This document shows positions 24,160-24,314 of a stretch of 49,053 nt of DNA, in pieces. Position 1 is the first letter of the stretch. Every line of letters begins with the position of its first letter. Source of the stretch: Candidatus Nanoarchaeia archaeon. GTDB taxonomy: Archaea; Nanobdellota; Nanobdellia; Pacearchaeales; GW2011-AR1. The DNA is taken from contig JBGQNO010000004.1 in the NCBI GenBank assembly GCA_041501125.1, positions 1 through 49,053 of the forward strand. The letters are read 5' to 3'. The notes under the pieces are model-generated. The model had not been told where the DNA came from. It saw only the letters and a list, made by a program, of their open reading frames with translations, and did no database searches. Made by a program: the position numbers and the translations under genes.

Positions 24160-24314
24160 TGCGGGAGGAAGGATTTGAACCTTCGCAGGCACTAAGCCAC
24201 AGGATTTCTCCTCTCCGATTCCGGAAGACCTTAAGTTAAGCAATCTGAGTTTGGCAATCTATTTGTCTTTCAACCAACAGATTCCTGCCCGTTTGGCCGC
24301 TCCGGCACCCCCGC
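24160..24314 (-). tRNA. tRNA-Leu(TAA) with two introns (47 nt at 30/31, 24283-24237; 24 nt at 37/38, 24229-24206)
   Basis: Acceptor stem GCGGGGG/CTCCCGC, T-arm GAAGG-TTCAAAT-CCTTC and a long variable arm. Removing both inserts restores CAGGA-CT-TAA-GA-TCCTG (84 nt). No encoded CCA. Confidence 0.85.

Follow-up and report, generated by a model that had tools for sequence, protein, structure and literature searches.

A candidate case of alternative cis-splicing in an archaeal tRNA-Leu gene carrying two anticodon segments

Among published systems, the tri-split tRNA-Gly of Caldivirga maquilingensis appears closest, by analogy, to the locus described here; its pieces are joined in trans, and its products, unlike the two proposed here, which are predicted from sequence, were shown experimentally (Fujishima et al. 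2009 PNAS, as related in passages of PMC4390854 and PMC4033280). The same passages describe the split tRNA-Glu(UUC/CUC) of Nanoarchaeum equitans, in which one 3' half is common to both tRNAs. The gene studied here would resemble these systems in that common 5' and 3' parts would be combined with alternative anticodon segments to give synonymous isoacceptors by means of bulge-helix-bulge (BHB) motifs, the splicing endonuclease EndA and a ligase. It differs in that its pieces are contiguous in one 155-nt gene on one strand, so that alternative folds of a single transcript would decide in cis which piece is used. In Caldivirga and N. equitans, separate genes give separate transcripts that are joined in trans; this feature is absent here, so the gene is not a member of that class.

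Multi-intron and non-canonical tRNA genes, known from Thermoproteales, Thaumarchaeota, Korarchaeum, ARMAN and other DPANN archaea, offer a second point of comparison (Sugahara 2008; PMC4033280, PMC4090602, PMC5829648). The gene shares with them several BHB or relaxed introns, some outside position 37/38, short micro-exons, and an association with EndA variants. A two-excision Leu(UAA) gene is by itself an ordinary multi-intron tRNA gene of known type, and in its UAA route the gene is such a member, the plain form with introns at 30/31 and 37/38 being common (30 of the 118 metagenome genes treated below). Unlike the multi-intron tRNA genes described so far, each of which has one product, it has an intron that encloses a further anticodon unit together with a half-site for it. 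Alternative splicing is commonly associated with eukaryotic mRNA, and archaeal tRNA introns are, to our knowledge, held to be excised according to a single fixed scheme that gives one product. A search of open-access papers and bioRxiv found no report of alternative anticodon exons in cis or of a second anticodon unit within an intron.

The window, that is, the whole stretch of 49,053 nt that was analyzed, comes from an assembly of 625 kb in 16 contigs with 38% GC that is 88% complete. The gene (24314..24160, minus strand) is a class II tRNA-Leu gene, the segments of which are listed in transcript order in Table 1; it does not encode CCA. From the arrangement of its sequence, it has three intervening segments and probably two products. 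The A/T-rich box upstream is a putative promoter, which we infer from the usual archaeal TATA spacing, and the T-run is likely to be the transcription stop. Also on this strand, and 310 nt upstream of the gene, is an intron-less tRNA-Thr(CGU) gene (24624-24696, minus strand; 62.4 bits against RF00005).

Table 1. Segments of the tRNA-Leu gene, its flanking signals and the RNA ligase gene in the window
Feature	Coordinates	Strand	Sequence	Remarks
TATA-like box, A/T-rich	24336..24346	-	TTTTTAAATTA	centre ~27 nt upstream of tRNA position 1; from sequence
Exon 1	24284..24314	-	GCGGGGGUGCCGGAGCGGCCAAACGGGCAGG	acceptor 5' strand, D arm, G26, C27-G30 of anticodon stem
Segment alpha, 33 nt	24251..24283	-	AAUCUGUUGGUUGAAAGACAAAUAGAUUGCCAA	3' end is the first 3' half-site, UGCC-AA
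Candidate CAG micro-exon	24244..24250	-	ACUCAGA	tRNA positions 31-37; anticodon CAG, A37
Linker	24237..24243	-	UUGCUUA	second 3' half-site, UGCU-UA; pairs with exon 1 GGCA, as UGCC does
UAA micro-exon	24230..24236	-	ACUUAAG	tRNA positions 31-37; anticodon UAA, G37
Segment gamma, 24 nt, at 37/38	24206..24229	-	GUCUUCCGGAAUCGGAGAGGAGAA	hairpin UCU(U)CCG-GAAU-CGGAGA; central-helix 3' half GGAG; bulge AA^A (^, junction)
Exon 3	24160..24205	-	AUCCUGUGGCUUAGUGCCUGCGAAGGUUCAAAUCCUUCCUCCCGCA	A38, stem 3' strand UCCUG, long variable arm, T arm, acceptor 3' strand, A73
T-run	24156..24159	-	TTTTATATTATT...	directly 3' of A73
RtcB RNA ligase gene	11298..12722	-		PF01139, E = 2e-168

Excision of 47 nt at 30/31 (24283-24237) and of 24 nt at 37/38 (24229-24206) gives an 84-nt tRNA-Leu(UAA) that is accepted by ARAGORN and has a 7-bp acceptor stem, a 3-bp D stem, the anticodon stem CAGGA/UCCUG, the loop CUUAAGA, a long variable arm and A73. 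This valid in-silico product bears out the preliminary description of the locus as a tRNA-Leu(TAA) gene with two excisions, one of them at the non-canonical position 30/31. Joining exon 1 to ACUCAGA and exon 3 produces an 84-nt tRNA-Leu(CAG) with the same stem CAGGA/UCCUG and the loop CUCAGAA, which ARAGORN accepts as well. The class II features of tRNA-Leu, namely the long variable arm, A73 and a Leu anticodon, are present in both in-silico products, and the tRNA body of the gene is near-identical to the other Leu tRNAs of its own genome. The predicted junction 24-mers are GGGCAGGACUCAGAAUCCUGUGGC for the CAG product and GGGCAGGACUUAAGAUCCUGUGGC for the UAA product. What had been described as the first intron is thus removed in the UAA route, as proposed, but it is not a simple intron: it holds the candidate CAG micro-exon and a 3' half-site belonging to it.

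The expectation that standard tRNA finders overlook the gene was correct, as the unspliced sequence receives no call from ARAGORN in default mode or from the Rfam model RF00005, either at the gathering threshold or at E<=10. When introns are allowed (-i), ARAGORN miscalls it as tRNA-Pyl(CUA) with a 71-nt intron. This output is the evidence for reading the locus as a gene with a CUA anticodon (Pyl or an amber suppressor) and a single intron of that length, which we consider, like the notion of a decaying pseudogene, very improbable. We rejected the tRNA-Pyl(CUA) call in that its junction lies outside any BHB and its anticodon is split; the AAUCU... bases are not conserved either, with AAACC, UAUAU, UAGCU and other sequences in relatives. 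Both the CUA and the pseudogene readings are further opposed by a body that is that of a Leu class II tRNA, by half-sites that are all intact and conserved, and by the status of the gene as the sole UAA gene of a genome in which UUA makes up 17% of Leu codons.

Far more plausible than these, and the chief competitor of a reading with two products, though still doubtful in our judgment, is the reading of the locus as a plain two-intron gene that makes Leu(UAA) only. Under it, ACUCAGA and the first UGCC-AA would be the relic of a 14-nt tandem duplication, and the two 14-nt units UUGCCAAACUCAGA and UUGCUUAACUUAAG are indeed identical at 10 of 14 bases. Retention of the relic might be explained by its supplying one strand of the 30/31 inner helix, or by correction of cuts at the first half-site in a second round of splicing. 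We accordingly examine each line of evidence below with respect to both this reading and that of a gene with two products.

The last six bases of exon 1, GGCA-GG, form the 5' half of the 30/31 BHB. The resulting motifs, GGCA/UGCC and GGCA/UGCU, are of the HBh' form: each has an inner helix and the bulges GGA and AAA/UAA, and an outer helix is missing. Both UGCY tetrads are followed by a 3-nt bulge, the third base of which is position 31, in the contexts UUGCC-AA for the CAG piece and UUGCU-UA for the UAA piece. At the first half-site, the inner helix AUCU(G)/(U)AGAU of segment alpha adjoins the bulges and has 7 contiguous inner pairs. At the second, the inner helix is AUCUG/CAGAU, with bases supplied by the 3' end of the CAG piece; the BHB-like motif ascribed to the first intron by the preliminary description, with GGCA/UGCU as central helix, GG^A and UA^A as bulges and this inner helix, is present in all its parts. 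In all 20 genes with the window layout, both 3' half-sites read UGCY + 2 nt + A, and inner-helix complementarity at the two half-sites is 4.65/6 and 4.4/6, compared with 3.4/6 when partners are mismatched. A set of 91 related splice sites shows covariation in the 30/31 central helix: A25 is opposite U in 14 of 14 cases, G25 is opposite C 40 times and U 36 times, and U28 is compensated in both of its two occurrences by a partner A or G.

With respect to the duplication relic, CUCAGA(U) does make the inner helix of the UAA route in genes with a 7-nt linker and in those without segment alpha, as that reading would have it. However, a helix strand need not be invariant, and plain 30/31 introns have many different inner helices. 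Moreover, genes with long linkers (L008, L086, L087, L106 and L220) use linker bases for the inner helix and still keep ACUCAGA.

At 37/38, the relaxed BHB with an A35.G mismatch that had been noted earlier is found, with the central helix CUUA/GGAG; in the UAA route the motif has three pairs plus the A.G mismatch, both flanking helices and the bulges. The GGAG of segment gamma can pair with CUUA in the UAA piece or with CUCA in the CAG piece. In the CAG route, the same central helix and the outer stem are formed, again with an A35.G mismatch, in a bulge-helix-loop with a large loop. There is no inner helix specific to the second excision of the CAG route, complementarity being 2.4/6 pairs, which is the control level; this counts in favor of the relic. 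The mini-introns of 12-16 nt in this lineage likewise have no inner helix.

The two half-sites are also close in their energetics. In RNAfold predictions for the window gene, the fold with the CAG half-site has -53.4 kcal/mol and that with the UAA half-site -54.2 kcal/mol, the minimum free energy being -54.9 kcal/mol, and the central-helix probability is 0.18 for the CAG half-site versus 0.17 for the UAA half-site. Across the 20 genes, the CAG-half-site fold is the more stable by a median of 0.7 kcal/mol. Since this fold is as stable as the other or more so, a structure-guided enzyme should, on these models, often join exon 1 to the CAG piece. Were the CAG route a dead end, this would be a heavy cost for the sole Leu(UAA) gene, and it speaks against the relic that a dead first half-site of equal stability would draw a large part of the sole precursor of Leu(UAA) into an unproductive path. 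For the last intron, the 3-bp helix has a nearest-neighbor probability of ~0 for either route, and the prediction is uninformative there.

The central helix at 30/31 uses C27 and A28 of the anticodon stem, so that the two folds are mutually exclusive. To this extent the idea of ordered splicing, in which the anticodon stem framing the second intron forms after removal of the first, holds up; its weakness is that the helix and bulges of segment gamma can form without the stem. A strict splicing order is thus something that we only infer.

In a BLAST scan of 60 relatives, chosen without regard to the cassette, eight full-length CUCAGA homologues were recovered, seven with ACUCAGA and one with GCUCAGA, in which G31 still pairs with U39; the same scan found three plain 30/31-intron genes and several intron-less Leu(UAA) genes. 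A pattern scan across GTDB gave 16 real species matches. The relatives that carry the cassette are labelled as Candidatus Pacearchaeota or Woesearchaeota MAGs, which marks the genome studied here as that of a DPANN archaeon; metagenomes are to be added to these. A metagenome scan that was anchored solely on the UAA piece and exon 3, such that the sample was chosen independently of the cassette, yielded 118 distinct genes, of which 64 lack an insert at 30/31, 30 have a plain intron there, 22 contain ACUCAGA and 2 contain AUUCAGG. The CAG unit is therefore seen in 30/31 inserts as ACUCAGA in 22 of 54 and as AUUCAGG in 2 of 54, against a chance expectation of ~0.006 per insert.

In total, we found 37 distinct genes with both anticodon pieces (dual genes), in two layouts. 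Twenty have segment alpha, as in the window; in the remaining 17, which have none, the CAG piece abuts exon 1, and the transcript resembles a Leu(CAG) precursor with a long 37/38 intron that holds the UAA piece. Apart from these two pieces and their half-sites, insert sequences of dual genes cannot be aligned, and the CAG piece itself varies at positions 31, 32 and 37 only. The design with two products may, on balance and jointly with the dual-product reading itself, have been retained in dozens of Pacearchaeota and Woesearchaeota lineages.

Some members of this gene family show further peculiarities. Two genes on metagenome contigs (L142 and L178) have AUUCAGG right after exon 1, with U32, G37 and the anticodon CAG, and one of them has A facing nucleotide 34. 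Dual genes on five GTDB MAG contigs (L095, L106, L094, L102 and L092) are interrupted by additional introns, some in the D loop or D arm and some in the T loop, and reach up to five intervening segments per gene. A tRNA-Leu(UAG) gene of a relative (L036, G051:C7:29155-29326) has a 24-nt D-loop insert, UUGCGAAGCGAUAGCUUGCAAGAA, between GGUCAAA and CAAACGG. Three contigs of one genome (G055: C85, C38 and C24) each match the two-intron Leu(UAA) gene over 118 nt at 70% identity and with equal scores, which may reflect a strain mixture or a repeated element. Finally, a second ACUUAAG inside the 37/38 intron of single-anticodon genes (L130; L067, in G039) was considered as a second cassette and rejected: CUUAAG is palindromic, so the extra copy in L130 and L067 is the 3' half of the central helix.

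A further line of evidence comes from the base that faces nucleotide 34 in the splice motif of the last intron. The tetrad of that intron pairs with loop positions 32-35, and the 3' site is common to both pieces. If both C34 and U34 must pair, then G is expected opposite, whereas A is allowed if only U34 has to pair. G faces nucleotide 34 in 33 of 37 dual genes versus 28 of 99 single-anticodon genes, the dual genes with A there numbering four. Within the metagenome subset, the figures are 21 of 22 versus 25 of 94 (Fisher p = 1.8e-9). Counting each last-intron family once leaves a ratio of 11/3 versus 18/46 (p = 7e-4), under a de-replication at 70% identity with the tetrad excluded that is a crude correction for relatedness rather than a proper phylogenetic one, a caveat that extends to all our statistics; when the last introns are grouped by single linkage at 60% identity or less, they all chain together, and only the 70% level is usable. 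The duplication relic leaves this preference for G unexplained.

The complement of Leu tRNAs provides the context in which a CAG product would act. Besides the dual gene, the genome has genes for Leu(AAG), Leu(CAA) and Leu(UAG); in its 88%-complete assembly, no other UAA and no free-standing CAG gene was found, and the check on whether this is the only Leu(UAA) gene, suggested at the outset, was thereby answered in the affirmative for the available sequence. Seven censused relatives with a dual gene likewise carry neither a further UAA gene nor a separate CAG gene. In ten control genomes from the order that have no cassette, UAA, CAA, AAG and UAG are present and CAG is absent. We had considered a gap-filling test, by which dual genomes would lack a free-standing Leu(CAG) and others would have it, and it is void, the ten controls lacking CAG too. 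The lineage normally lives without Leu(CAG), and nothing forces a CAG product; that relatives thrive on four Leu tRNAs without CAG is a point for the relic. Of five free-standing Leu(CAG) genes from other families in the class, three have the loop CUCAGAA and two have CUCAGGA, and we accordingly dropped A37 as a disqualifier of the CAG loop.

The tRNA-Leu(AAG) and tRNA-Leu(UAG) of the genome (C1:68646-68729 and C2:63793-63876, outside the window) are the same except for nucleotide 34. Leu(AAG) is found in most relatives, and a few have GAG instead; the usual archaeal base at this position is G34, not A34. ARAGORN found no Asn, Phe or Tyr tRNA genes in the genome. A weak tRNA match (C5:26535-26641, minus strand; 19.7 bits) resembles a tRNA-Asn(GUU) with a 37/38 intron, and no 5' acceptor strand was seen in the stretch of it that was examined.

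Codon use in the genome gives CUG a share of 17% of Leu codons, equal to that of UUA (17%), and a CUG/(CUA+CUG) value of 0.76, versus a G/(A+G) of 0.19 at other third positions. The comparison of codon use that had been planned, with 10 dual genomes set against 8 single ones, did not reach significance (p = 0.12), a result that agrees with the relic. When genomes are instead grouped by the base facing nucleotide 34, the median CUG excess is 1.78 in dual genomes with G there (n=11) versus 0.74 in the others (n=15), with p = 0.004 for a grouping that was partly post hoc, eight genomes having been added after, and with p = 0.07 in the held-out subset. In the three dual genomes with A facing nucleotide 34, the CUG excess is low (0.52, 0.54 and 0.40), and this low CUG preference in exactly the three G-less dual genomes is left unexplained by the relic. 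The codon-use pattern is thus suggestive, not decisive, in favor of a CAG product.

The enzymes for such splicing are present. A single EndA gene, on contig C2 outside the window, encodes a protein of 178 aa with N- and C-terminal domains (PF01974, 1.9e-31), and among solved structures its closest relatives are NEQ205 of N. equitans (1e-39; PDB 3IEY_A) and the EndA of M. jannaschii (8e-32, full-length alignment). No gene for a second EndA subunit was found, the 88%-complete assembly giving a single match to PF01974 at E<=1. The architecture, which the preliminary description had singled out for determination, is therefore alpha4-like by sequence, with one type of subunit of ~180 aa and no beta subunit gene. 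EndAs of alpha4 type in Pacearchaeota and Woesearchaeota have been linked with more extensive tRNA gene disruption (Kaneta et al. 2018, PMC5829648). The EndA of this genome is like the DPANN alpha4 enzymes of that study in being a single protein of ~180 aa with N- and C-terminal domains, and unlike them in that the specificity-broadening L3 insert named there was not recognized in its alignment with M. jannaschii EndA. A broad-specificity endonuclease, as had been surmised, is plausible because many splice motifs in the lineage are relaxed. The RtcB ligase gene is in the window itself; a 305-aa ORF (12701-13618, minus strand) overlaps the start of rtcB.

Taken together, we think it somewhat probable that this one gene supplies both Leu(UAA) and Leu(CAG) by alternative BHB splicing in cis. 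The proposal draws on the anatomy of the gene, on two valid in-silico tRNAs, on the conservation and covariation of the four half-sites and the CAG piece, and on the presence of EndA and RtcB. In the proposed mechanism, the 5' site GGCA-GG^A would pair either with UGCC-AA^A, before the CAG piece, or with UGCU-UA^A, before the UAA piece, and the common 3' site GGAG-AA^A would form a 4-bp central helix with a CUCA or a CUUA loop. EndA would cut in the 3-nt bulges and RtcB would ligate the ends. By the first route, 47 and 24 nt would be removed to give tRNA-Leu(UAA), the only decoder of UUA in the genome; by the second, removal of 33 and 38 nt would give tRNA-Leu(CAG), which is otherwise missing from the genome. 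Both products would have one body, with A73 and the long variable arm, and LeuRS should for this reason charge both. We regard use of the UAA route as almost certain, given the share of UUA among Leu codons. That the CAG route is also used and yields a working tRNA is, by contrast in strength, a claim we would put only a little above even.

A third account takes the CAG unit to be, rather than an exon, a part of the precursor RNA or of the intron after its removal that has a function there, and which might act as an anticodon-loop mimic for a processing or modification enzyme or as part of a stable circular RNA. The 7-mer is conserved and its place in a mature tRNA is a prediction, and excised BHB introns are circularized in archaea, all of which speaks for such a role. 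We know of no candidate partner, however, and neither the dedicated 3' half-site lying exactly at position 31 of the unit, nor the pairing-compatible G in the common last intron, nor the identity of the unit with the loops of real Leu(CAG) tRNAs is explained by it; we hold it to be improbable.

If the dual-product reading is true, with two decoders coming from one transcript, it would reveal a novel means by which a minimal genome can encode its set of tRNAs. For the debate on the fragmentation and evolution of tRNA genes, the gene would form a bridge between cis-introns and the split and tri-split tRNAs that are spliced in trans, and it would be a naturally occurring case of two tRNAs whose ratio is determined by RNA folding alone. 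Independently of their products, such genes are missed or miscalled by tRNA finders, with the effect that DPANN genomes appear to be without Leu(UAA), and the CAG decoder, if real, is a component uncounted in estimates of their codon capacity.
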